Of a DNA stretch of 60,519 nt, positions 16,666 to 42,898 are shown piece by piece. The stretch is taken from NCBI GenBank assembly GCA_038229115.1, contig JBBROQ010000001.1, forward strand, positions 1-60,519, in the 5' to 3' direction. This stretch comes from Planctomycetota bacterium (GTDB lineage: Bacteria; Planctomycetota; UBA11346). The position numbers and the translations under genes are program-made. A model generated the notes under the pieces. That model searched no databases. It saw nothing but the letters and a program-made list of their open reading frames with translations, and was not told the origin of the DNA. How positions within the stretch are numbered: position 1 is the stretch's first letter; the number at the start of each line of letters is the position of its first letter.

Positions 16666-17520
16666 ATGCGCTTCACGAAAATGCACGGCTGCGGCAACGA
16701 TTACGTCTATGTCGACGCTTGGCGCGAAACCCTGCCCGCAGATCTGCCATCCCTGGCGCAACGCATCAGCGACCGCCACACCGGCATCGGCGCCGATGGC
16801 CTGATCATCGTCGGGCCGTCGGACGTGGCCGATGCGCGCATGACCATGTTCAACGCCGACGGCAGTCAGAGCGAGATGTGCGGCAACGGCTTGCGCTGCG
16901 CCGCGAAACTGGCCTTCGACCATCGTCATGTCCGCGGCCCCGCCCTGCGCGTGGAAACCGGAGCCGGCGTGTTGGACGTGACGTTGCTGATGCAGAAAAA
17001 AGTCTGCGCCGGCGCACAGGTAGTGATGGGCCGACCGCGCCTGACGCCGATCGCGGTGCCGGTCACACATCCCGGACCCGGACCGCGCCTGGAGCTCATG
17101 GTCAGCGTCAACGGCGAGCGACTGCGCCTATTAGCGGTGGGCATGGGCAATCCGCATGCGGTGCTCTTCGTCGATGACCCGGACAGCTTCCCGGTCGCCA
17201 CCGTCGGCCCGCGCCTGGAACACCACCCGCGCTTCCCGCGCCGCACCAATGTCGAATTCGTCGCGCGCCTCGCCGACGAAGCCGGCCTGCCGGTACTGCG
17301 CCAACGCACCTGGGAACGCGGCAGCGGCGAAACCCAAGCCTGCGGCACCGGCGCCTGCGCGACGCTGGTCGCCGCCGTCCTCACCGGCGTAATCCCCGGC
17401 CGCGAAGCCACCATCCGCCTCAACGGCGGCGACCTACACGTACGCTGGGCCCGCGACGACGGCCCGGTGGTGCTGACGGGGCCGGCGGTGGCGGTGTTTA
17501 GCGGCGAGATTGATGACTAA
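16666..17520 (+). CDS. dapF: diaminopimelate epimerase
   Basis: MRFTKMHGCGNDYVYVD, the first catalytic Cys in SEMCGNGLRC and the second in ETQACGTGACA. I prefer the ATG at 16666 over the track GTG at 16627. Confidence 0.93.
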   Translation: MRFTKMHGCGNDYVYVDAWRETLPADLPSLAQRISDRHTGIGADGLIIVGPSDVADARMTMFNADGSQSEMCGNGLRCAAKLAFDHRHVRGPALRVETGAGVLDVTLLMQKKVCAGAQVVMGRPRLTPIAVPVTHPGPGPRLELMVSVNGERLRLLAVGMGNPHAVLFVDDPDSFPVATVGPRLEHHPRFPRRTNVEFVARLADEAGLPVLRQRTWERGSGETQACGTGACATLVAAVLTGVIPGREATIRLNGGDLHVRWARDDGPVVLTGPAVAVFSGEIDD

Positions 17521-17607
17521 CGGACAAGCATCGGCCGGCGCGAGCCAGCATGGTGGGATGATGCGAAAACCACACGTCCAGCGCTAGGAAGCATGCGCTT
17601 GTTAGGC
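17515..17607 (-). repeat. ~90-nt boundary repeat, copy 1 (attC-like candidate: GCCTAAC ... GTTAGTC)
   Basis: Minus strand: GGCCTAACAAGCGCATGCTTCC...GATGCTTGTCCGTTAGTC. It is homologous (about 65-70% by eye) to 28617-28703, including an identical 11-mer cttgttaggcc on the + strand. It is GC-richer than the ORF it follows. The repeat is directly observed; the attC interpretation is tentative. Confidence 0.5.
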
Positions 17608-17610
17608 CGA

Positions 17611-17988
17611 TCACCATCCAAGACTGGTGAAATACCCCCTATAAACGCAAAGACACAGAGCAATCGTAGATATAGCCATCAAAGCTGAGCCAAAGATACG
17701 TACAGAGTGAGTGCTTTTTTTTACAATCATTAGCACGGATAGACCAAGTAAGATTGACGCTAGAAGGTACTGTATCAGGCCAATGGATTCGACTGCTGAT
17801 CGCAGTTGATCGCGCGCCGTGTGTTGAGCTGAAATTCGCCATTTTCCATCTGCGAATGAGCCGTCCAGATTCCTGTCCGTTCTGGGCAAATAGTAGCCGG
17901 CGTTTGCATTTAGTATTTCGATATCTACTGCAATCGAAGAGACCACGATCCCCAATATTGCCAGAATGGCAAGAATGACGTACTTCAT
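17611..17988 (-). CDS. hypothetical small membrane protein (about 3 TM helices)
   Basis: 125-aa AT-rich ORF with hydrophobic segments YVILAILAILGIVVSSIAV, IGLIQYLLASILLGLSVLMIV and IFGSALMAISTIALCLCVY. I recognise no family. Confidence 0.6.
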   Translation of the reverse strand: MKYVILAILAILGIVVSSIAVDIEILNANAGYYLPRTDRNLDGSFADGKWRISAQHTARDQLRSAVESIGLIQYLLASILLGLSVLMIVKKSTHSVRIFGSALMAISTIALCLCVYRGYFTSLGW

Positions 17989-18223
17989 CTCGTAGGCCTA
18001 ACATAAAGCTAAAACGGACCATTTACTTATAATGCAGCATAATGGAACAAGTAGCGTGGTGGGTGATTGGAAAGAGAACAGAGACGTAGCGTGAAGAACT
18101 GAGCGGGACATGGCGCCAGGATTCACTGATAACCTTAGTCCGCGAATTCTTGATTGGAGCTGGGTGACTGGAAAAAATAACACGAAATGGGCTCGTTTTC
18201 AACGTCTGGTTAGTCAATATTTC

Positions 18224-18514
18224 CTATTTATTATAATAATTCCATTGAGTCCGGTGAATCAGCTCTGTGTCAAATGCAATACATGGAAAGTAGAAATAAT
18301 AAAGAAACCTAGAAGGAGAAACACATTCTCCTGATCTTTGAAATATCACAGAAGGACACCATACTTTTTCTTCATGAGACATACTGCGAAACGAAGAAAC
18401 GTACTTTCCTCTAATTGACATTGGAACATAAGAAACAAAATAAATTAAAACCAATGCCCCAAATATTCGATCGACAGATTTATTATTGCAGCAAAGAATA
18501 CGCATAATATTCAC
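18224..18514 (-). CDS. hypothetical small protein (one TM segment)
   Basis: 96-aa AT-rich ORF with a GTG at 18514 or an ATG at 18505. Cys/aromatic-rich. I recognise no family. Confidence 0.4.
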   Translation of the reverse strand: MNIMRILCCNNKSVDRIFGALVLIYFVSYVPMSIRGKYVSSFRSMSHEEKVWCPSVIFQRSGECVSPSRFLYYFYFPCIAFDTELIHRTQWNYYNK

Positions 18515-18532
18515 TAAATGTATTTAGGTATT

Positions 18533-18694
18533 GGCTGACAGTTTATTAGGCGGCGGTGCGCATTTGCGCTGTTGGTACGGACTGCGGTCTATTGCATGCC
18601 ATGATGGCGGCACTATGGAGCACGCGCATGTCAACGTCAACTGTTCGCTCTACAGTTCGTGGTACGTCCGATAGGCGACTGAAGACTGTTGGAA
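18533..18694 (-). repeat. ~160-nt boundary repeat, copy A (attC-like candidate)
   Basis: About 80% identical by eye to 29194-29311 over ~118 nt (cagtttattaggcgg...ggtctattgcatgccat...cacgcgcatg.caacgtcaa). A second conserved block, actg..gttgg, sits at the same distance in both copies (18684-18694 versus 29340-29354). The minus strand ends GCCTAAT-AAACT-GTCAGCC. Confidence 0.6.
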
Positions 18695-18745
18695 TATTTA
18701 CCTTCAAGCTGTTTTACTCCAAGGTGTTTCCATGTTGGCGCTGGC

Positions 18746-19155
18746 TTAGTATCGGCGCCGGATTGAGCGGTTGCTAGAGCGTTTTCCGGGCTGCTGATCT
18801 ACAGCCTTAAACGAAGAAATTAGTACGCCCTCGTTGTCGTGCGCCATAATTATTGCGCAGAACATGTCTATCTCCAATAGGTCTCGTTGCTTTTCCCATA
18901 CTGTTAGATTATTAGATACTTACACAGTATTTCGTATTTTTGACCGTCAATATTTCCAGGCCCCCTCACTGCATTTTCGACGCTCCTTATTCCAGAGCTT
19001 TAGATCCTTTGCAATTATAATGCTCAACCTATAGCGCCGTCGCCTTTCAGATGAGCTGTTGTAGGCGAACATTGAAGTAATCGTGTAATATCGGCAGGAA
19101 TTAACTTCGCGCCCTTGATCCAAAAGCTGACGGTAGATTTTATGATTTTGTGCAT
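18746..19155 (-). pseudogene. DUF4279-like gene disrupted by frameshifts and stops
   Basis: My manual minus-strand translation finds an ATG at 19155 giving MHKIIKSTVSFWIKGAKLIPADITRLLQCSPTTAHLKGDGAIG*. Fragments follow in other frames (KERRKCSEGAWKY*, EIDMFCAIIMAHDNEGVLISS...). The N-terminal pattern and the D-x-FC...N-G motif resemble DUF4279 proteins as I remember them. Confidence 0.5.
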
Positions 19156-20099: not shown

Positions 20100-20260
20100 G
20101 TGTTGAGGTTCGTGTTGGGGTTGTCTGATTATTGTAGAAAACGCAAACGAATTGTGACGTCTGATACACCCAGCGTCTGCAATCAGGCGCCATGGCCAGC
20201 GATGCAGGACGAAGGCAATATTGTACCACAGTTCGTTGCATTGCCTTGTTGGTCATCCAT

Positions 20261-21292: not shown

Positions 21293-21337
21293 GCACGACC
21301 TCGGTCACCTCGCCGCCGACGGCCCTCCGACCGGCCG

Positions 21338-21380
21338 CAGGCGGGCGCGCCCTTAAAATGCGCGCCCGCCTGGGGTTTTG
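21338..21380 (+). terminator. rho-independent terminator
   Basis: caggcgggcgcgc-ccttaaaat-gcgcgcccgcctg (13-bp GC stem) followed by gggttttgggg. Confidence 0.8.
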
Positions 21381-21632
21381 GGGCGGCTTTACTGTGATAG
21401 CGCAGGCGCACGGGCTCCTTGAATTGCCATTCGAGGCAGCGATAGCGATTGGGTAGATCTCACTTCTTCGAACACGGCCCGGCGAAATACGCAGGGCCAT
21501 CGGTTGCGACTTTCAGTTGTAAGATTGATTTATATACGGCAGACGTCGCCGCGCGCGTTTGCTGAATCGCCAACGACAGCCGTAGAATTGACAATGCCGC
21601 CGATGTCCGCTTAGTGCCGCCGGCCTGCCGCG

Positions 21633-23108: not shown

Positions 23109-24206
23109 ATGCGCTCACTTTCTTCTGCCTCAGCCACCACTGCCACTGCCTTCCAACGCCCGATCCCGGCCCTGTCCTGGACCGCTCTTGCCTCCATCAC
23201 CGCGATCGCGTTGGTGCTGTTGGTGGCCGCCTGGGAACGGCACTGCCGCGCCATCGGCTATGCGCCGGGCCTGGACGACACCAGCGATTTGTGGGTCGAA
23301 CAACGCCGTAGCGTGCGCCCCGACGAAACCGTCATCATCGGCGCCTCGCGCGGACTGTACGGCCTTGATTTGGATGAGCTGGAATCGGCCCTCGGGCGCC
23401 GGCCGGTGCAGCTGTGCTTGGTCGGGTCCTGCGTGTATCCGATCCTTCAGGACTTCGCCGATGACGCGTCGTTTCATGGCACCGTGATTTGCGACCTGGT
23501 GCCGGGACTGTTGTTGGTGCCGCCGATGGCGCCGCCCTACCACAACGCTGAAAAAGCGCTGGAGCGCAAGCGCACGCAAAGCCTCACGCAGCGCGCCAGC
23601 CACCTGCTGTCGCTGCCGCTCGAACGGACCTTCGCCTGTCTGCAAATGGACGATCTCACCCTGGCCGACCTGTTGCGTGACCTGCGCATTCCCAATCGTG
23701 CCCACGCGCAATTAGGCGCGGCCCTGCCGCCTTATTTTGGCCGCATCGATCGCGACCGCCGCACCTGGATGATCGACCGCGTGCAGACCGACGCCGCGCT
23801 GCGCGATCGGATCCAACGCGGCTGGATCCCGCTGTTCTCACCACCGCCGAAACCGCACTGGATCCCGGATCAGGCCTTCGGCGCCTACATGCACGCCATG
23901 GTCGACGGCCGCTTCGCCGCCATGGCCAAGGCCGTCGACACCATCCGCCAACGCGGCGGCAAAGTCGTCTTCCTACGCATGCCCTCTACCGGCGACCTGC
24001 GCGTGGTCGAAGACCGCCTCAGCCCGCGCACCGAGGTCTGGGACCGGCTGTTGCGCGAAGCCAACGCCCCCGGCGTGTACGCCGAGGATCACCCCGAACT
24101 GTGCGGCTTCGATATTCCCGAATCATCGCATTTGAGCGCCACGGCTTCGGTGGAGTTTACCCGCCAATTGGCGCCGTATATTCGCACGGCGCTGGCCGCG
24201 CACTGA
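23109..24206 (+). CDS. hypothetical membrane-anchored protein, probable partner of the MBOAT enzyme
   Basis: 365 aa, GC-rich, starting 10 nt after the MBOAT stop. It has one N-terminal TM segment (WTALASITAIALVLLVAAW). I recognise no family; its position corresponds to AlgJ/DltD-type partners. Confidence 0.6.
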   Translation: MRSLSSASATTATAFQRPIPALSWTALASITAIALVLLVAAWERHCRAIGYAPGLDDTSDLWVEQRRSVRPDETVIIGASRGLYGLDLDELESALGRRPVQLCLVGSCVYPILQDFADDASFHGTVICDLVPGLLLVPPMAPPYHNAEKALERKRTQSLTQRASHLLSLPLERTFACLQMDDLTLADLLRDLRIPNRAHAQLGAALPPYFGRIDRDRRTWMIDRVQTDAALRDRIQRGWIPLFSPPPKPHWIPDQAFGAYMHAMVDGRFAAMAKAVDTIRQRGGKVVFLRMPSTGDLRVVEDRLSPRTEVWDRLLREANAPGVYAEDHPELCGFDIPESSHLSATASVEFTRQLAPYIRTALAAH

Positions 24207-25209: not shown

Positions 25210-25554
25210 TTATACGTCAAATGCGAGGCGAATTCCGTTATCGACGGAAAACAGCAGTGCCGGATCCAGTTCACAGACAAAGTCCGATATTCTGGTTTTA
25301 TTAATGGTTAGAATCTGCGAAACATTGATAACGCTGTCTTTGGCTAATCCGGACTCTTCGTGTTTTACCAATACATTGCCGGGGGCTTTGGCCAAAGCCA
25401 CGTTCGTCGTTAGCATTGCGACCATTACCGTGGGTATTGAACTGGCATTAAAAAGATCCGACTGGATTATCATAACCGGGCGTCTGTCACCCGGCTCATT
25501 CCCAATTGGGCTATCCAGATTTGCCCAATACACTTCTCCGCGCCTCATTTCCAA
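25210..25554 (-). CDS. type II toxin, MazF/PemK family endoribonuclease
   Basis: RRGEVYWANLDSPIGNEPGDRRPVMIIQSDLFN...TVMVAMLTTN...DSVINVSQILTINKTRI matches the PemK/MazF fold pattern. Confidence 0.9.
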   Translation of the reverse strand: MEMRRGEVYWANLDSPIGNEPGDRRPVMIIQSDLFNASSIPTVMVAMLTTNVALAKAPGNVLVKHEESGLAKDSVINVSQILTINKTRISDFVCELDPALLFSVDNGIRLAFDV

Positions 25555-25781
25555 TCATTCCCAGGCAAATCAGCAATCCCGGCCGATTCAAATGCGGTGT
25601 CAATAGCCACAGATGACGAATACACCTTATTTAATTGATCGGTAATTCCATGGTCGCCTTCCTTCTCAACATACCATCGAATGGCATTCGTATAAAATTC
25701 GCTTCTGCTCATCTTTTTGCGACGCTGAATCCGCTCCGCGGCTTGAAAGACGCTGTCTGGCAGTGATATTGCAGTCTTCAT
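25545..25781 (-). CDS. ribbon-helix-helix (CopG/MazE-like) antitoxin
   Basis: 78 aa. MKTAISLPDSVFQAAERIQRRKKMSRSEFYTNAIRWYVEK has the RHH strand-helix-helix pattern. It overlaps the toxin start by 10 nt. Confidence 0.8.
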   Translation of the reverse strand: MKTAISLPDSVFQAAERIQRRKKMSRSEFYTNAIRWYVEKEGDHGITDQLNKVYSSSVAIDTAFESAGIADLPGNDWK

Positions 25782-25854
25782 GTTTGGAGTATGACCGGTT
25801 ATACCAGTCGATCAAGCATGCGCTCACCCTTGTTGAAAGCACCCCGATGTTTGG

Positions 25855-26006
25855 GAGCGGCCGCTGTGCGAAGCCAATGGCCAGTTGTATTCACTTAGGA
25901 TTACGAGAACCTGTGCGATTTCGACATCCCCGAATGGTCGTATTTGAGCGTCACGTCTTCGGTGGAATTTAACCGCCAATTGGCGCCATATATTCACGCG
26001 GCGCTG
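25855..26006 (+). pseudogene. diverged, frameshifted duplicate of the 3' end of the 23109..24206 gene
   Basis: Aligns with 24050-24200 at about 80% identity by eye. For example, ...cgaatggtcgtatttgagcgtcacgtcttcggtggaatttaaccgccaattggcgccatatattcacgcggcgctg aligns with ...cgaatcatcgcatttgagcgccacggcttcggtggagtttacccgccaattggcgccgtatattcgcacggcgctg. It encodes LCDFDIPEWSYLSVTSSVEFNRQLAPYIHAAL versus LCGFDIPESSHLSATASVEFTRQLAPYIRTAL, with a 1-nt indel and a TAG upstream. Confidence 0.8.
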
Positions 26007-26197
26007 ACGACAACGTCGCGTCAGAGCGTCGAACGACGCGTTCGCCGGACGCAACGGCATGTCATGTTGATTCGGGAATTGGTGTAATCGCCCTCTTGCC
26101 GCCTGCGATTATGTGACGTAAACCAATTCCATTTTCCAGGATCCTGTCGCAGCAGTATCGGGATGAATAGTCATCCCCCTTGCCGGGCATTAATTAT

Positions 26198-26719
26198 CTA
26201 CAGTTTCTGCGCCTTGGTGATTAATGACGCGCCGCAGTTTTCGCACCTCAACGAATCAGGCGATGTCTTGCGGCCGCATTTGGAACAAGCGTTACTGTTT
26301 CTTATTTTAATTCCAAGTATATGATTAATAATTAAGGCGAATCCAATCCACATTGCCATATTTGCGGTCATTCCTGCCCAGGTTACTGGCGCAATCATTG
26401 ATCCCGAAACATTTACATAAACTTCGGTGCCCAGCCAATGAAGGAGCAACCCCGCCGGAAAACAATAAAACATATTAATATACAATCCCATAATAAATGG
26501 AATGGCTAATATTTGCAAATGTAACAACGATCCGACAAGCGCCAATAGTGCGAAGATGGCGAATAGTAGATTTGGTAGCACTCCAATAGTAAATGGAATT
26601 AGATAGTACCCTACTCGGACGTTCCATATTAATTTGTCTGTGATGATAAAGCCTGCTTTGTGGGTCTTGCGCCGGTTCAAATATAATACAAATAAGACGA
26701 TTAGTAGCAATAATAACAT
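26198..26719 (-). CDS. hypothetical polytopic membrane protein with a C-terminal zinc-ribbon
   Basis: 173 aa and AT-rich. About 4-5 TM helices are followed by CSKCGRKTSPDSLRCENCG (CxxC...CxxC). Confidence 0.6.
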   Translation of the reverse strand: MLLLLLIVLFVLYLNRRKTHKAGFIITDKLIWNVRVGYYLIPFTIGVLPNLLFAIFALLALVGSLLHLQILAIPFIMGLYINMFYCFPAGLLLHWLGTEVYVNVSGSMIAPVTWAGMTANMAMWIGFALIINHILGIKIRNSNACSKCGRKTSPDSLRCENCGASLITKAQKL

Positions 26720-26950
26720 TAAAATAAATCCATTATAGACAAGCTCAGCATTAAGAGCTTCGGGGACGGACGCCCAGCGTCCGTGATCAGGGGACTTGGA
26801 TCAGCCCCGCATTGCGAAATGACATAGTCGCAACCGGGATAGACATGCGGCCCGCTGCATCGCTTAGATTGGCATTTTGCAGCTGAAGCAAAATCACAGG
26901 CTAAAATTCTGCTATTGAACATTTATAATTATTCAGTGTTTAATCGGTGT

Positions 26951-27349
26951 TTATTTACGATTATTGCCGTTAGACAACATAGAATGAACAGCGTGGCTTT
27001 CTAACACCACTTCACCAGCAGAAGAAATGCGCACACTTTCCAGAACTTGGTCAAAGCCATCGTTGCTTTCAATCTCGACTGACAGGCTTTGGTCCTTGAT
27101 GTTTATTTTACCGCGAGCCGCTCTAAATTGCCCTTTGCAGGAACTAATCTTTTTATTTAACTGCACTAACTGAACGCCAGACAAGCCGTGCGCTGTCGAT
27201 CTGCGATTCCAGTAAACAAGCGGACTGCCTGACAACTTTCCTTTTATGGTATTTGAAACTGTTGTAAATGTTACCTGTGATATGTTTCTGTTTTCGTCTA
27301 TCTGTATCTGCCTTTCAATATTTACGGATGTCGACATAAGGCATGCCAA
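26951..27349 (-). CDS. hypothetical protein, possibly the nonsense-truncated remnant of a membrane-anchored protein
   Basis: 132-aa ORF with a TTG start. The upstream in-frame sequence encodes a TM-like AFISCGIGILIVILACL, preceded by an in-frame TAA (27401-27403) and an ATG at 27445. Confidence 0.45.
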   Translation of the reverse strand: MACLMSTSVNIERQIQIDENRNISQVTFTTVSNTIKGKLSGSPLVYWNRRSTAHGLSGVQLVQLNKKISSCKGQFRAARGKINIKDQSLSVEIESNDGFDQVLESVRISSAGEVVLESHAVHSMLSNGNNRK

Positions 27350-27772
27350 TATTACGATTAGAATGCCAATGCCGCAGGAAATAAAAGCGTTCCTCGCGTG
27401 TTATCCAATTTCCAAAAAGTAGTTATCGTCTTTTATTCGGGTCATTTGGGTCTGTCCAACGACAAAGATCACAGTGGCCGGCCAAACAAGCTAGCTGAAA
27501 TAGAAGCAAGTATGTTACGAACTCCTGTGCATCACCTCGTTGGACCGCAATTTTATTGTTTAAAGACACCATATTTGTATTACAAGTTTAATTTATTATA
27601 TTTTAAGGAATCATGTACAAAAGATTTCTTAAATAACATCGCTGCGCTTAGGCAATTTTTATTTACCCCATTTGCTAACATAAAGGCAAGGGGGAATGTG
27701 GCCGAAACAACGCTAGACGCGCTGAGTGCCCATGGGGCAATTGGAAGGGCGGTGGGGGTTGGCGATTCGGCG

Positions 27773-28405
27773 TCACATTCTCCCTTTCAGCGACTGGCTA
27801 GGCTGTTTAATGACTTCAGTTATTATTAATTTTTCTTGCGTACATTTAAGAATATCAGCAATTTCTTTAATTTTCGGCCTAACCCATCGGTGATCTGCGG
27901 TAATTTGCCATAGGATCGGAATGAGCCTGTCCCTGGATTCAATGAATACTACTCTCATTCCCTTTCTGTTCAGTCCATTCTTTGCAGTAAAATACACATC
28001 GCGCAAATTTGATACCTCTGTTATTTCAATTTCATCACCATTGTAACTCGTTAATCTTTCATTTATAATAACATATGGTTTCATGGCGATCTGAGTCTTA
28101 TTAATTCTATGTAATATTACACAGAATGACACAGAGGAAAGCAAAGCGCCAGGGGCAATATAATATAAAGACTCACGATCTTTCCAGTAAACAAGGGCAA
28201 CGATAATAATATAAATAAAGCCCGCCCATACACATGTGGTCTTTATTGGAATTGGCGGCAGATCAATGGATATCGTCCCATCTTGGGTTTTATTGATACG
28301 AACATTTGATGAAATTACAGCGGGCCAAGCTTTGAATTTTAAATATTTTAGGATTTCTTCGCTGTTATTCATTAGCGAAGCCCAACGTGGTGTATCGATT
28401 AACAT
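27773..28405 (-). CDS. hypothetical membrane protein (two TM helices plus a C-terminal soluble domain)
   Basis: 210 aa and AT-rich. TM hairpin CVWAGFIYIIIVALVYW / YYIAPGALLSSVSFCVILH followed by a ~110-aa domain. The architecture is reminiscent of bacterial PH (YdbS/T-like) proteins, but this is a guess. Confidence 0.55.
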   Translation of the reverse strand: MLIDTPRWASLMNNSEEILKYLKFKAWPAVISSNVRINKTQDGTISIDLPPIPIKTTCVWAGFIYIIIVALVYWKDRESLYYIAPGALLSSVSFCVILHRINKTQIAMKPYVIINERLTSYNGDEIEITEVSNLRDVYFTAKNGLNRKGMRVVFIESRDRLIPILWQITADHRWVRPKIKEIADILKCTQEKLIITEVIKQPSQSLKGRM

Positions 28406-28616
28406 AAGTGGATATCATTAGGTCAACTATTTTTATCTTAAATATTGTACGATTGGATTCATCAGAATTTATATTTTCAAGATGTCGGTCCAACATCAGA
28501 GAGCACCGTGACCATGCCCGACTGCCGTGGATCGCGCGGAAATCGTGGGTAGCAATTGGAACGATGGCTAGCGGAGCGTCAAGAACTGAGCGGCGGAACA
28601 GATCCCATCCTGAGCC

Positions 28617-28703
28617 ATTAAACCAGGCTGCCGCGAATTCTTGACCATAGCGGTGGGCGGGAACGAACACGTCATGGGCTCCGGTGCATCGACTTGTTAG
28701 GCC
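28617..28703 (-). repeat. ~90-nt boundary repeat, copy 2 (attC-like candidate: GCCTAAC ... GTTTAAT)
   Basis: Minus strand: GTGGCCTAACAAGTCGATGCACCGGAGCCCATGACGTGT...TTCGCGGCAGCCTGGTTTAAT. The GCCTAAC contains the TAA stop of the 163-aa ORF. Homologous to 17515-17607. Confidence 0.5.
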
Positions 28704-29188
28704 ACTTTTTCTATGATAATTGCATCATTATTGTCTTTATCCAAATATCGTTTTACCATGTAATTCCCATTGGGTCTATTTTTCAACAACAATAAAGTCG
28801 GAGATGAGCCATTAACGCTTTTGATTACATCATGGATTTTAGTTGGTGATCCATCTAATGGGAGTATTGCCAACGTTCCGCTATCTGACCCCAAAGGCCA
28901 ATGATTCGGATTTAATGATTTTCCAGTTATGGAATCACTTGAACCAATAAAAATATCACCCATCGATTCTACAACGGAACCTTCGCTGGTAATATCGACT
29001 ATCACTCCGCGTTTCTCTATAAACTTATAAACGTCGCATTGGTCGTCATTAAAGACATCGTCTAAATTGATAGGATCGCATATTAATATTTTACCATCTT
29101 TAACATTTATCGTTTCGTCACCGAAACCAACGCATGACAATTCTTCTTGTTTATCACATTGTGATATAATATATGTTTTTGTATTCAT
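28697..29188 (-). CDS. hypothetical acidic soluble protein (immunity-protein-like flavour, unassigned)
   Basis: 163 aa and very AT-rich, with no TM segment. It is bracketed by an 11-nt perfect inverted repeat, tgttaggccac (28694-28704) and gtggcctaaca (29191-29201). Confidence 0.6.
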   Translation of the reverse strand: MNTKTYIISQCDKQEELSCVGFGDETINVKDGKILICDPINLDDVFNDDQCDVYKFIEKRGVIVDITSEGSVVESMGDIFIGSSDSITGKSLNPNHWPLGSDSGTLAILPLDGSPTKIHDVIKSVNGSSPTLLLLKNRPNGNYMVKRYLDKDNNDAIIIEKVA

Positions 29189-29193
29189 TTGTG

Positions 29194-29354
29194 GCCTAAC
29201 AGTTTATTAGGCGGTTGTCCGCATTTTCGCTGTTGGCAAGGACTGTGGTCTATTGCATGCCATCATGGCATGCACTGTGGTACACGCGCATGGCAACGTC
29301 AATACTTCGCTCCCTTTCATAGAGAAAACTCGGGAACGACACTGCTGGTTGGCG
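29194..29354 (-). repeat. ~160-nt boundary repeat, copy B (attC-like candidate)
   Basis: The minus strand starts CGCCAAC (29354-29348) and ends GCCTAAT-AAACT-GTTAGGC (29200-29194), 5 nt before the ATG of the 163-aa ORF. It contains the perfect palindrome gcatgccat-c-atggcatgc (29255-29273). About 80% identical to copy A. Confidence 0.6.
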
Positions 29355-29419
29355 AAAGAATTATCTTCCCGTCATTTTATGTCGTGGCTCTGCAAGTCGG
29401 CGCAGGCCGAGTATCGGCG

Positions 29420-31486
29420 TCAGCGTTTCCCGCGTCCCCGCCGGTGACCTTTCGGGCGGCCGCGGGCGGGCGCGGTTTCGGCGGGTGCGCTGCCGTCGGC
29501 TTCGATGCGCTTGATTTGATCGCGTAGGCGGGCGGCTTCTTCGAAGCGCAGTTCTTCGGCGGCGGCGACCATGCGGGTGGTTAGGTCTGCGATGTCGGCA
29601 GTGGTCACGCGCGGGGCATCGCCGCCGGCGTCGTAGCCGCTGCCGGTGGGTTCGGCGACGCGACGGGCTTTGATTTGTTCGGCGAAGGTGTGGGCGGTGT
29701 CTTGCTTGGTCGCGGTGCGCGGGGTGATGCCGTGCTCGGTGTTGTAGGCGATTTGATACGCGCGGCGGCGGTCGGTTTCGCCTAACGCTGCGCGCATCGC
29801 AGCGGATTCGCCGTCGGCGTACAAGATCACTTGGCCGCTGACGTGGCGCGCGGCGCGGCCGATGGTTTGGATCAGCGAGGTCTGCGAGCGCAGGAAGCCT
29901 TCTTTGTCGGCGTCGAAGATCACCACCAACGAAACCTCCGGTAAATCCAGGCCTTCGCGCAGCAGGTTGACGCCGATCAGGCACTGCGTTTCGCCTTGGC
30001 GCAGGGCGTTCAGAATTTCGATGCGCTCGATCGCGTCGATGTCGCTGTGCAGGTACGTGGTGCGCACGCCGGCCTCGCTCAGGAATTCGGCCAGGTCTTC
30101 GGCCAGGCGTTTGGTCAGCGTGGTGACCAACGTGCGTTCGTTGCGCAGGCAGCGCGTGGTGACTTCGCGGATCAGGTCTTCGACTTGGCCGCTGGTCGGA
30201 CGCACGCTGACCGGCGGGTCGATGATGCCGGTCGGGCGCACCAATTGCTCGGCACGCATGGTTTCGTGTTTTGCTTCATAGGCGCCGGGCGTGGCCGAAA
30301 CGAAAACCATCTGTTTTACCAACGTTTCCCATTCAGCGAATTGCAGCGGTCGGTTGTCGAGCGCGCTGGGCAGGCGGAAGCCGTGCTGCACCAGGGTTTC
30401 TTTCCGGCTGCGATCGCCGGCGTACATACCGCCGATTTGCGGGACGGTGACGTGGCTTTCGTCGATCACGCACAGGAAGTCGGGCGGAAAAAAGTCGTAC
30501 AGACAGTACGGTCGCTCGCCGGGTTTGCGGCCGGTCAGATGCCGGGTGTAATTCTCGATGCCGCTGCAATAGCCGACCTCGCGCATCATTTCCAAATCGT
30601 AGAGCGTGCGCGAGCGCAGCCGCTGCGCTTCCAACAGCGCGTTCTGATTCATCAGCTCGCGGTAACGCTCTTCCAGTTCCGCTTCGATGGTCAGACAGGC
30701 GCCGGCCAGGGTTTGTTCTTCGACCACAAAGTGCTTCGCCGGGTAGATGTTCATGCTCTCATGCCGGCCCAGAACTTCGCCGGTAAGCGTGTGCACGGTG
30801 GCGATTTCTTCGACCTCGTCGCCGAAGAACGACACCCGAATCGCGGTGTCGTCATAGGCCGGCCACAGCTCGACCACATCGCCGCGCACCCGGAATTTGC
30901 CGCGTTGGAAGTTCAGATCACCGCGGTTGTATTGGATATTCAGCAGCGACAGCAGGAACGCATTGCGCTCCAAGGCCAAGCCGACGTGCAGCGAGACGGT
31001 CAGATCCTGATACGAATTCGGTGAACCCAGGCCGTAGATCGACGACACCGACGCAACGATTAGGACATCGCGCCGCGACAGCAGCGAGCGCGTTGCTGAC
31101 AAACGCAATTTGTCGATTTCCTCGTTGATTTGCGATTCTTTTTCGATGTAGAGGTCTTTGCCGGGCATATACGCCTCGGGCTGATAATAGTCGTAATAAC
31201 TGACGAAATATTCGACCGCGTTATGCGGGAAGAAGCCTTTGAACTCGCTATACAGCTGCGCCGCGAGGGTCTTGTTGTGACTGAGCACCAGCGTCGGTCG
31301 TTGCAGATTCGCGACCACGTTGGCGATGGTGAAGGTCTTGCCGCTGCCGGTCACGCCCAACAGCGTCGGCGCGCGCTGACCCTCCAGTAAAGCTGCGGTC
31401 AGGGCCGCAATTGCCTGCGGCTGATCGCCCATCGGCGGATAGGGCGCGACCAGTTGGAAACCCGCGGCGGTGTCGAGCGATGGCAT
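29420..31486 (-). CDS. uvrB: excinuclease ABC subunit B
   Basis: MPSLDTAAGFQLVAPYPPMGDQPQAIAAL...LLGVTGSGKTF (Walker A), the helicase motifs and a C-terminal UVR domain (ELRFEEAARLRDQI). I use the ATG at 31486; the track ORF is over-extended to 32209. Confidence 0.95.
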   Translation of the reverse strand: MPSLDTAAGFQLVAPYPPMGDQPQAIAALTAALLEGQRAPTLLGVTGSGKTFTIANVVANLQRPTLVLSHNKTLAAQLYSEFKGFFPHNAVEYFVSYYDYYQPEAYMPGKDLYIEKESQINEEIDKLRLSATRSLLSRRDVLIVASVSSIYGLGSPNSYQDLTVSLHVGLALERNAFLLSLLNIQYNRGDLNFQRGKFRVRGDVVELWPAYDDTAIRVSFFGDEVEEIATVHTLTGEVLGRHESMNIYPAKHFVVEEQTLAGACLTIEAELEERYRELMNQNALLEAQRLRSRTLYDLEMMREVGYCSGIENYTRHLTGRKPGERPYCLYDFFPPDFLCVIDESHVTVPQIGGMYAGDRSRKETLVQHGFRLPSALDNRPLQFAEWETLVKQMVFVSATPGAYEAKHETMRAEQLVRPTGIIDPPVSVRPTSGQVEDLIREVTTRCLRNERTLVTTLTKRLAEDLAEFLSEAGVRTTYLHSDIDAIERIEILNALRQGETQCLIGVNLLREGLDLPEVSLVVIFDADKEGFLRSQTSLIQTIGRAARHVSGQVILYADGESAAMRAALGETDRRRAYQIAYNTEHGITPRTATKQDTAHTFAEQIKARRVAEPTGSGYDAGGDAPRVTTADIADLTTRMVAAAEELRFEEAARLRDQIKRIEADGSAPAETAPARGRPKGHRRGRGKR

Positions 31487-42586: not shown

Positions 42587-42898
42587 GTGAGTAACAAAAG
42601 CGAAACAAAACCACTTTTCGGCAAAAGCTTAAATGAGTGGGTTTTCGCCGGTATATTCCTCTTTGCCGGGCTTGCCCTAAGCAATGTTCCTTTTCTATTT
42701 TCAGTTAATTGGAGGTTCGCCGCCACTGTATTTGTCTTCGCGTTTCTCGTGATTTTGCAGGCTAGGTTTCTAGCGTTTTCCCTGAAAAGTATGTGGATTT
42801 ACCCTAAAAATAAGTCTGGATACGTTTTGGTCCTGCTGATTTTGATAACGTTCTTATTTTCCTGCAATTCGCTCATCGCCGAATTCGCGCGCCAATAG
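42587..42898 (+). CDS. hypothetical small membrane protein in an AT-rich mini-insert
   Basis: 103 aa with a GTG start preceded by aggag, and 3 TM helices. Composition is sharply different from the neighbours. Confidence 0.55.
   Translation: MSNKSETKPLFGKSLNEWVFAGIFLFAGLALSNVPFLFSVNWRFAATVFVFAFLVILQARFLAFSLKSMWIYPKNKSGYVLVLLILITFLFSCNSLIAEFARQ

Follow-up and report, generated by a model that had tools for sequence, protein, structure and literature searches.

The DNA analysed here (the window) is a 60.5-kb metagenome contig of a Planctomycetota bacterium, with a guanine-cytosine (GC) content of about 65%. An earlier note, made from the sequence alone, had described next to uvrB, on the minus strand, a cassette-like unit composed of a 160-nucleotide (nt) repeat, an orphan open reading frame (ORF) and a second repeat of about 87 nt. 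Our analysis retains the ORF and delimits the unit differently: the ORF of 163 amino acids (aa) and the 215 nt downstream of it very probably constitute one integron gene cassette (29199-28494), the first of an integrase-less array beside uvrB. This minus-strand array, situated between uvrB and the next host genes, holds at least four or five cassettes. The boundaries of the cassette, the structure and family membership of its recombination site attC, and the absence of the integrase gene intI within 60 kb are established below. The integron gene cassette is a known kind of element; what we point out is an attC family of about 215 nt, abundant in environmental sequences. The coordinates of the features are collected in Table 1.

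The 163-aa ORF and its homologue in another cassette array

Direct reading of the minus strand confirmed the beginning of the unit as it had been described: GTTAGGC at 29200-29194 is followed by 5 nt (CACAA) and then by the ATG (29188) of the acidic 163-aa ORF. The last codons of this ORF, GTG GCC TAA, are followed by a C and yield the motif GGCCTAAC at 28703-28696; the earlier note had given the correct sequence for this core and a position shifted by one base (28704-28697). The stop codon is overlapped by the box R'' of the attC (GCCTAAC). The perfect 11-nt inverted repeat announced around the ORF is also present, and reads TGTTAGGCCAC (29201-29191) and GTGGCCTAACA (28705-28695). With its complement included, the motif GGCCTAAC is present 5 times in the window for 0.97 expected, always within the two low-GC islands of the contig. 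A further GTTAGGCC, at 27876-27883 on the minus strand, is located inside the 210-aa ORF of the next cassette and is a potential secondary core site.

The 163-aa ORF gave no Pfam hit, and an exact look-up of its product was without result. The AlphaFold model of the product is moderately confident (predicted local distance difference test, pLDDT, 71) and of the alpha/beta type; its comparison with the PDB revealed no significant fold match (best template modelling (TM) score 0.18).

One close homologue (P0241, 82%) was detected among 5.8 billion proteins, and three remote homologues among 1.84 billion representatives. P0241 sits on two short contigs from the Joint Genome Institute (JGI), L039 and L040, which represent a cassette array with three small ORFs, each followed by a repeat of about 216 nt of the same kind as the 215-nt site of the window. 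The P0241 cassette starts at the junction G/TTAGGCCACAAATG (here and below, a slash within a junction marks the crossover point), identical to that of the window. Upstream of this junction are found, in L040, the attC of another cassette (..GACCTTGTCG) and, in the window, the spacer that follows uvrB (..AATAAACTG). The similarity between the window and L040 begins exactly at TTAGGCC, the crossover point, the upstream sequences being unrelated, and the downstream neighbour of the homologue also differs from that of the window. The earlier note had proposed a check for cassette shuffling, and the only close homologue gives a positive answer to it: another array, the same junction, another attC upstream. 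On this sequence comparison, the 163-aa ORF is demonstrably mobile between arrays. In L039, an IS110-family transposase gene (positions 1319-2329, Pfam Transposase_20) is inserted at the attC of the P0241 cassette, an insertion that recalls the attC-targeting IS1111 group.

Structure of the 215-nt attC

The 5' boundary of the cassette (cassette A) is fixed by the comparison with L040, and its 3' boundary by the alignment of the attC family together with an attC covariance model. On its 5' side, the attC displays the box R'' GCCTAAC (28702-28696), the spacer AAGTC and the box L'' GA(T)GCACCG; on its 3' side are found the box L' CGGTGCTC (28508-28501), the spacer TCTGAT and the box R' GTTGGAC (28494-28488). 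The boxes L'' and L' are about 170 nt apart and carry one extrahelical base, and the spacers that separate them from the R boxes are unpaired and 5-6 nt long. By its core sites, its spacers and the single extrahelical base of its L boxes, this site has the canonical attC layout. Its 5' arm, GCCTAAC-AAGTC-GATGCACCGGA, resembles those of genuine class 1 attC sites, for example estX (GTACAAC-AAGTT-GCTGCACCGGA). The bottom strand of 28484-28708 folds as a single long and imperfect hairpin, with pairing of the R and L boxes (z = -2.66; 0 of 200 shuffled sequences as good). In addition, the 5' end of the cassette, TTAGGCC, matches its own R'' at 7/7 positions, and the match extends to 11 nt.

The element of about 87 nt that had been placed after the ORF was not recovered as a unit. 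Its terminal motif GTTTAAT (28623-28617) exists, in the least conserved part of the 215-nt unit, and corresponds to no boundary. The 87-nt unit was rejected: it folds no better than shuffled sequences (z of +1.3 and -0.4), and the similarity to the other low-GC island extends much further. The homology claimed with an element beside dapF (17607-17515) had to be reassigned, as the true homologue within the window is the 220-nt site 18215-17996, which follows a 96-aa ORF. Between the 215-nt and the 220-nt sites, three L-box pairs are changed on both sides (GCACCG with CGGTGC versus AAAACG with CGTTTT).

The attC family in metagenomes

Metagenome contigs were searched with a pattern built on the two blocks of the 215-nt repeat that are best conserved. 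At least 120 contigs carry the family, many of them with 2-6 copies on the same strand, spaced 450-1500 nt. Among the loci listed, full-length matches to the 215-nt site were found in 122 loci (up to 91% identity) and full-length family matches to the 220-nt site in 78 loci. An alignment of 81 distinct full-length members (212-222 nt) was realized. The AAC of R'' is invariant, and the end of the site follows GTTRRRY with few exceptions, the GTT being invariant or nearly so. For the structure named beforehand, the paired cells amount to 93.8%, versus 85% in shuffles and 29-43% with slid partners. Changes on both sides affect 20 of the 34 pairs (222 cells), and the covariation score is 0.233 versus 0.073, a value attained by 0 of 500 shuffles. 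The proposal of an integron-type cassette whose inverse core overlaps the stop codon is supported by the attC layout, the family and the covariation.

The outermost positions of the R boxes pair poorly with the R' of the same site and well with the GTTRRRY of the upstream junction. From 35 consecutive sites, we observe that R'' is perfectly complementary (7/7) to the upstream junction in 19 and to its own R' in 7, random pairings giving about 20%. This match is explained by a crossover between G and TT, with TTRRRY carried along with the cassette.

Fragments of integron integrases, divergent from arrays of this attC family, were found in L124 (1-726) and L084 (129-491). The best NCBIfam match of these tyrosine recombinase fragments is TIGR02249, "integron integrase". 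In L124 (1-900), the junction CAATTAACTG/TTGGGC is a candidate attI of this integron type.

The centre of the family is more conserved in sequence than its L boxes, with the blocks TCAAGAATTCGCGG, CCGCTCAGTTCTTGACGCT and TTCCAAT (window 28560-28640; alignment columns 59-78 and 120-148). The blocks TCAAGAATTCGCGG and CCGCTCAGTTCTTGACGCT pair with each other. The central sequence TTGACG-N16-TCCAAT reads like a weak promoter aimed at the next cassette.

Detection by covariance models

Two covariance models were trained only on attC sites from plasmid class 1 integrons, located with IntI1: R1 was built from eleven genuine sites delimited by hand, and R2 was rebuilt from 20 sites aligned with Infernal. 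As a positive control, R1 recovered 26 attC sites in plasmid loci (E 1e-15 to 1e-5). The window was searched with both models without filters. Their three best hits (26772-26873, 20168-20254 and 27454-27545) are all on the minus strand in the low-GC islands; the fourth island hit is exactly 28488-28702 (11.2 and 10.7 bits), and a partial hit was obtained at 18175-18215, likewise on the minus strand of an island. The E-values of the island hits, from 0.008 to 3, are individually weak; outside the islands, the hits are scattered on both strands and all have E > 1. The check with attC models suggested by the earlier note gave a divided answer. With models trained on class 1 sites, the members of the family score 14-33 bits with the same ends as the window site, and those 83-88% identical to it reach about 33 bits with R2 (E ~5e-6); the window copy itself has the expected ends and only about 11 bits. 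The uvrB loci of relatives gave no R2 hit at E <= 1.

The hit 20168-20254 (20.4 and 17.7 bits) is located upstream of a 289-aa ORF in the dapF-side island, and its R' is GCTGGGT rather than GTT... A similar R' variant, GCTGGGC, is found at 26772-26778.

The spacer after uvrB and the insertion point

The 160-nt repeat described at the head of the unit does exist (82% over 133 nt, 29180-29312 versus 18519-18650); the assignment of this repeat to the cassette was not retained. A more sensitive search extends the match to 71% over 243 nt (29180-29419 versus 18519-18757), up to the position right after the uvrB stop codon. The spacer has no match in the 120 metagenome cassette loci listed, nor downstream of uvrB in relatives, and no Rfam hit. 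As it is absent from cassette contigs and from uvrB-downstream regions, it is considered as host sequence rather than as a part of the cassette. A 17-mer of the 160-nt element, searched in 185,579 species genomes, gave 15 chance-level hits with no extended similarity, and a scan of the spacer for sigma-70 promoters on the cassette strand found none. The spacer was also considered as a long attC and rejected, since folding paired its ends in no case and no attC model hit it. The sequence GCATGCCAT-G-ATGGCATGC at 29255-29273 in the uvrB spacer is a perfect palindrome, which the second copy (18592-18610) retains in part and which may be a protein-binding site or the end of the uvrB transcript.

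At the insertion point, GCCTAA-N7-TTAGGC has the half-sites, the spacing and the cut position of the attI1 core (GCCCTAA-AACAAAG/TTAGGC, read from plasmids), and it matches the integrase-proximal junction of L124 at 13/16 positions. Its left half is identical in the second spacer copy (18551-18539). In both copies of the locus, the spacer gives way to the cassette at one and the same base, after ..CCGCCTAATAAACTG. The array of the sister copy ends ..GTCCG/TTAGTCATC, within which TTAGTC overlaps the stop of dapF; the final codon and stop of this gene, GAC TAA, read TTAGTC in reverse complement. A GTT is present at both outer junctions, at 29200 and at 17521, the latter overlapping the dapF stop. 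These junctions suggest that the end of the spacer acts as an attI-like (or attG) site. The ancestral uvrB-spacer-dapF junction may have read GCCTAATAAACTG/TTAGTC, and all the cassettes would have been inserted there. attI sites are integrase-specific.

Diverged copies of the 3' ends of three host genes were detected inside the region: dapF at 21465-21560 (tblastn E 0.02 and DNA alignment; compare 17455-17545), uvrB at 21310-21460 (63% identity, GC-rich, tentative; compare 29435-29588) and the gene of a 365-aa protein at 25839-26012 (77%; compare 24026-24200), this last copy flanking an inserted block with EamA and MazEF. The uvrB and dapF copies abut at 21460/21465, an arrangement that a tandem duplication of the dapF-uvrB segment would produce. 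We propose with moderate confidence, from this arrangement, that the segment was duplicated in tandem and that the cassette content diverged afterwards, which would explain the two spacers. The repeats were also considered as the displaced gene 3' ends of an integrative element inserted at dapF. Such pseudo-3'-ends exist, yet duplication fits better, and an integrative element would leave the cassette boundaries unexplained.

Absence of an integrase and comparison with known systems

The earlier note had remarked that the expected integrase was missing and replaced by uvrB, and this was verified. No Phage_integrase hit was obtained in any window ORF scanned, tblastn with IntI1 was blank across the 60.5-kb window, and no tyrosine recombinase is present in the window; the position expected for intI is occupied by uvrB, which ends at 29420. 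Groups of clustered attC sites that have no integron-integrase (CALINs) are defined by a minimum of 2 attC sites that share a strand and lie within 4 kb, with intI missing from the vicinity (PMC4889954). Here, the attC sites 28702-28488, 27803-27673, 27545-27454 and 26873-26772 are all on the minus strand with no intI found. Since the window contains no intI, the locus represents a CALIN rather than a complete integron. Like the published CALINs (PMC4889954), it lacks a neighbouring intI and antibiotic-resistance genes, and its size of about five cassettes is small, as is that of most of them. It differs from them by having at least four attC sequence types, of which one is 215 nt long, and by abutting a host gene through a conserved spacer with an attI-like core at its end.

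With the sedentary chromosomal integrons, typified by the Vibrio cholerae repeats (VCRs), the locus shares a large family of mutually similar attC sites with compensatory stem changes, a family that is linked to intI in some contigs, and the MazEF genes that adjoin the array. In contrast to them, this locus has no integrase, sequence conservation is higher at the centre of its sites than in the L boxes, and the sites measure 212-222 nt versus about 120-130 nt for VCRs. The insertion point differs from attI1, the "simple site" of class 1 integrons, by the absence of an adjacent intI and of recognisable, established accessory repeats of the DR1/DR2 type, and by its location, 220 nt past a housekeeping gene's stop codon. 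The insertion of cassettes outside integrons, at genomic GWT sites (attG), has been described (Loot et al., bioRxiv 10.1101/2022.09.11.507474). As in these attG insertions and the single attC sites lacking integron-integrases (SALINs) of that work, the cassettes lie outside an integron platform, the junctions are at G/TT, and the distal junction extends over the end of a host gene that it leaves intact. However, attG sites were described without attI-like sequence, whereas the present site has a clear inverted half-site, and several cassettes have accumulated at one point, which suggests a repeated attI-like use. An attC model for Planctomycetes has been published by Ghaly et al. 2021 (PMC8352920).

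Proposed mechanism and alternative explanations

By analogy with characterised integrons, the 215-nt attC would fold, as single strand, into an imperfect hairpin with its R and L boxes paired. IntI would cut between G and TT of GTTRRRY, excise the cassette as a circle and re-insert it at a core site. The 5' end of the cassette would accordingly be TTAGGCC, complementary to its own R'' (GGCCTAA), and it is this complementarity that produces the 11-nt inverted repeat. The end of the spacer, GCCTAA-TAAACTG, would represent the left half of a double-stranded insertion site, attI-like or attG; in the sister copy, the right half would persist as the TTAGTC that overlaps the dapF stop, at the distal end of the array. 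Any further movement of cassettes would depend on an IntI encoded elsewhere.

Several observations weigh against this reading. The window's own attC reaches only 10.7-11.2 bits (E 2-3) and alone would not pass; its R' (GTTGGAC) pairs with R'' at only 5/7 positions and one L-box position is mismatched. The variable central region of attC sites has been described as 20-100 nt (PMC4889954), and the 215-nt site, with a central region of about 170 nt, is beyond this range. No integrase is known for this genome, so the activity of an integrase on the cassette is putative. The end of the spacer is read as attI-like from comparison with a single junction (L124) and with attI1. Finally, the short site adjoining dapF obtains no more than 4.1 bits, from an alignment confined to its R boxes, and is a candidate attC that is not established. 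The excess length of the 215-nt site is a difference of degree, the recombination boxes being unaffected.

The alternative that deserves most attention is that the array is an arm of a complete sedentary chromosomal integron, whose integrase and true attI lie elsewhere, the uvrB-proximal junction being a rearrangement breakpoint. The same attC family does accompany integron-integrase fragments in L124 and L084, the region bears signs of duplication and insertion, and rearrangement is listed among the origins of CALINs by Cury et al. (PMC4889954). We nevertheless consider this scenario possible rather than likely: the sharing of the junction base by both copies, in the same spacer, fits a site-specific insertion better than a random breakpoint, as does the distal junction of the sister copy on the GTT at the dapF stop, and the window contains no integrase remnant. 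An artefact is very improbable. The window is a metagenome contig and attC repeats are abundant in such samples, so that the low-GC islands might be assembly chimeras joined through repeated attC sequences; yet, within a single contig, high-GC host genes border each island on either side, the junctions are at core sites and not inside long identical repeats, and the two repeat copies of the window, only 63-82% identical, are too diverged to mislead an assembler.

The three-part mobile unit of the earlier note (160-nt repeat, ORF and 87-nt repeat), in which the 160-nt element would be a long attC or a part of the cassette, appears hardly credible. This element does have two copies in the window, both of which immediately precede an orphan ORF and stop at the junction; but it is unmatched in the 120 cassette-array contigs listed while the attC has hundreds of matches, the homologous cassette of L040 is devoid of it, the homology of its two copies runs 107 nt further, to the uvrB stop codon, no attC model hits it, and GTTTAAT lies in the variable middle of the 215-nt unit. 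Least credible of all is a terminator or operator pair surrounding a host gene without recombination. Inverted repeats do frame the ORF, and a structure after the stop codon could terminate transcription. However, there is no T-run, a terminator scan was blank at these positions, the element belongs to a family of hundreds of arrayed copies with core-site logic and linked integrases, and the ORF, with 35% GC in a 65% GC genome, moves between contexts.

Within the favoured reading of an integrase-less cassette array, we also entertain, as a speculative and rather unlikely extension, that the post-uvrB spacer is a fixed integrase-less landing pad, kept through the duplication of the locus, and that the centre of the attC has a second function, for example as an outward promoter. 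If so, a chromosomal attI-like site would be used repeatedly by an integrase encoded elsewhere, each cassette would drive the next one from TTGACG-N16-TCCAAT, and long arrays would be expressed without a Pc promoter. The standard attC size limits would then systematically miss an abundant environmental cassette pool.

The default size limit of standard attC detection is 200 nt. The family of about 215 nt may exceed it, and such cassettes may be under-counted. For Planctomycetota, the locus represents a well-delimited integrase-less cassette array with both outer junctions readable, one as an attI-like core and the other as a GTT over a host stop codon. The length and sequence conservation of the attC family, these readable junctions and an attI-like core without integrase may be of interest to specialists. 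For annotation, the low-GC orphan genes beside uvrB and dapF are to be considered as integron cargo, and the uvrB-proximal repeat should not be read as a mobile element.

Other cassettes, genomic setting and flanking genes

Four further cassettes follow cassette A, the last of them being probable (Table 1). In the attC of cassette B, R'' is degenerate (GCCTAGC, not ..TAAC), R' is GTTAGCA and the z of the hairpin is -3.9; the final ~12 codons of the 210-aa ORF lie within the 5' arm of this site. This second attC family comprises 26 homologous sites in metagenome loci, which end TAAC..GTTAGC and display compensatory changes in the L arms. The attC of cassette C is hit by the models at 14.1 and 14.9 bits and has homologous sites in L104 and L121. 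With 15.8 and 18.4 bits (E 0.13 and 0.034), the attC of cassette D ranks first or second among the attC model hits of the window. No attC model hit was obtained downstream of cassette E. In the other island, the sister cassette is preceded by the second spacer copy (18757-18539), and the short candidate attC of the last cassette shares with the 215-nt attC only its first ~20 nt (GGCCTAACAAG..).

Table 1. Positions of the cassettes, recombination sites and flanking features in the window.
Feature	Position	Strand	Description
uvrB, flanking host gene	29420-31486	-	Pfam UvrB domains; 80% identity to Planctomycetota UvrB
Spacer	29201-29419	-	From uvrB stop codon to first cassette; holds the 160-nt repeat; host sequence, not cassette
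attI-like core at insertion point	29194-29212	-	GCCTAA (29212-29207), TAAACTG, TTAGGC (29199-29194); crossover G29200/T29199
Cassette A	28494-29199	-	From T of G/TTAGGCC (29199) to G of crossover G/TT in its own attC (28494)
Cargo ORF, 163 aa	28697-29188	-	Acidic; 35% GC versus ~65% in host; function not assigned by sequence or predicted fold
attC of cassette A, 215 nt	28488-28702	-	GCCTAAC to GTTGGAC; layout, fold, model hits, family homologues
Cassette B	27673-28493	-	210-aa ORF (28405-27773) and second-family attC (27803-27673, ~130 nt)
Cassette C	27454-27678	-	225 nt, no ORF on array strand; 92-nt attC 27545-27454 (R'' GTCCAAC, R' GTTGGAC)
Cassette D	26772-27459	-	132-aa ORF (27349-26951), attC 26873-26772
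Cassette E (probable)	26198-26771	-	173-aa zinc-ribbon membrane ORF (26719-26198); strand and low GC like other cassettes
Sister cassette, other island	17996-18538	-	96-aa ORF (18514-18224) and 220-nt attC (18215-17996, GACTAAC to GTTAGGC)
Last cassette, other island	17515-18001	-	125-aa ORF (17988-17611), short candidate attC (17607-17515), R' GTTAGTC

The best matches of the host proteins are found in Planctomycetota assemblies (UvrB 80% identity, neighbouring 365-aa protein 70%). The two low-GC islands (40-46% GC) extend over ~17.5-20.7 kb beside dapF and ~25.1-29.2 kb beside uvrB, and nearly all their plausible ORFs are carried by the minus strand. In a Pfam scan, the island ORFs belonged to no family, except the MazF/antitoxin pair and the zinc-ribbon protein; scans for Rfam families and tRNAs found nothing. 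In every relative compared (UvrB 78-80% identity; also approached through the 365-aa neighbour), a different region lies downstream of uvrB, with no dapF, spacer or cassettes there; these relatives are distant ones, and the empty site was not found in them.

A third low-GC orphan ORF (43% GC, 103 aa) is located at 42587-42898, between two convergent high-GC genes, with no attC-like site seen adjoining it. At the far end of the array region, a MazF (PemK-like) toxin gene and a small antitoxin gene are encoded on the cassette strand (25210-25781); toxin-antitoxin pairs are common in chromosomal integron arrays.

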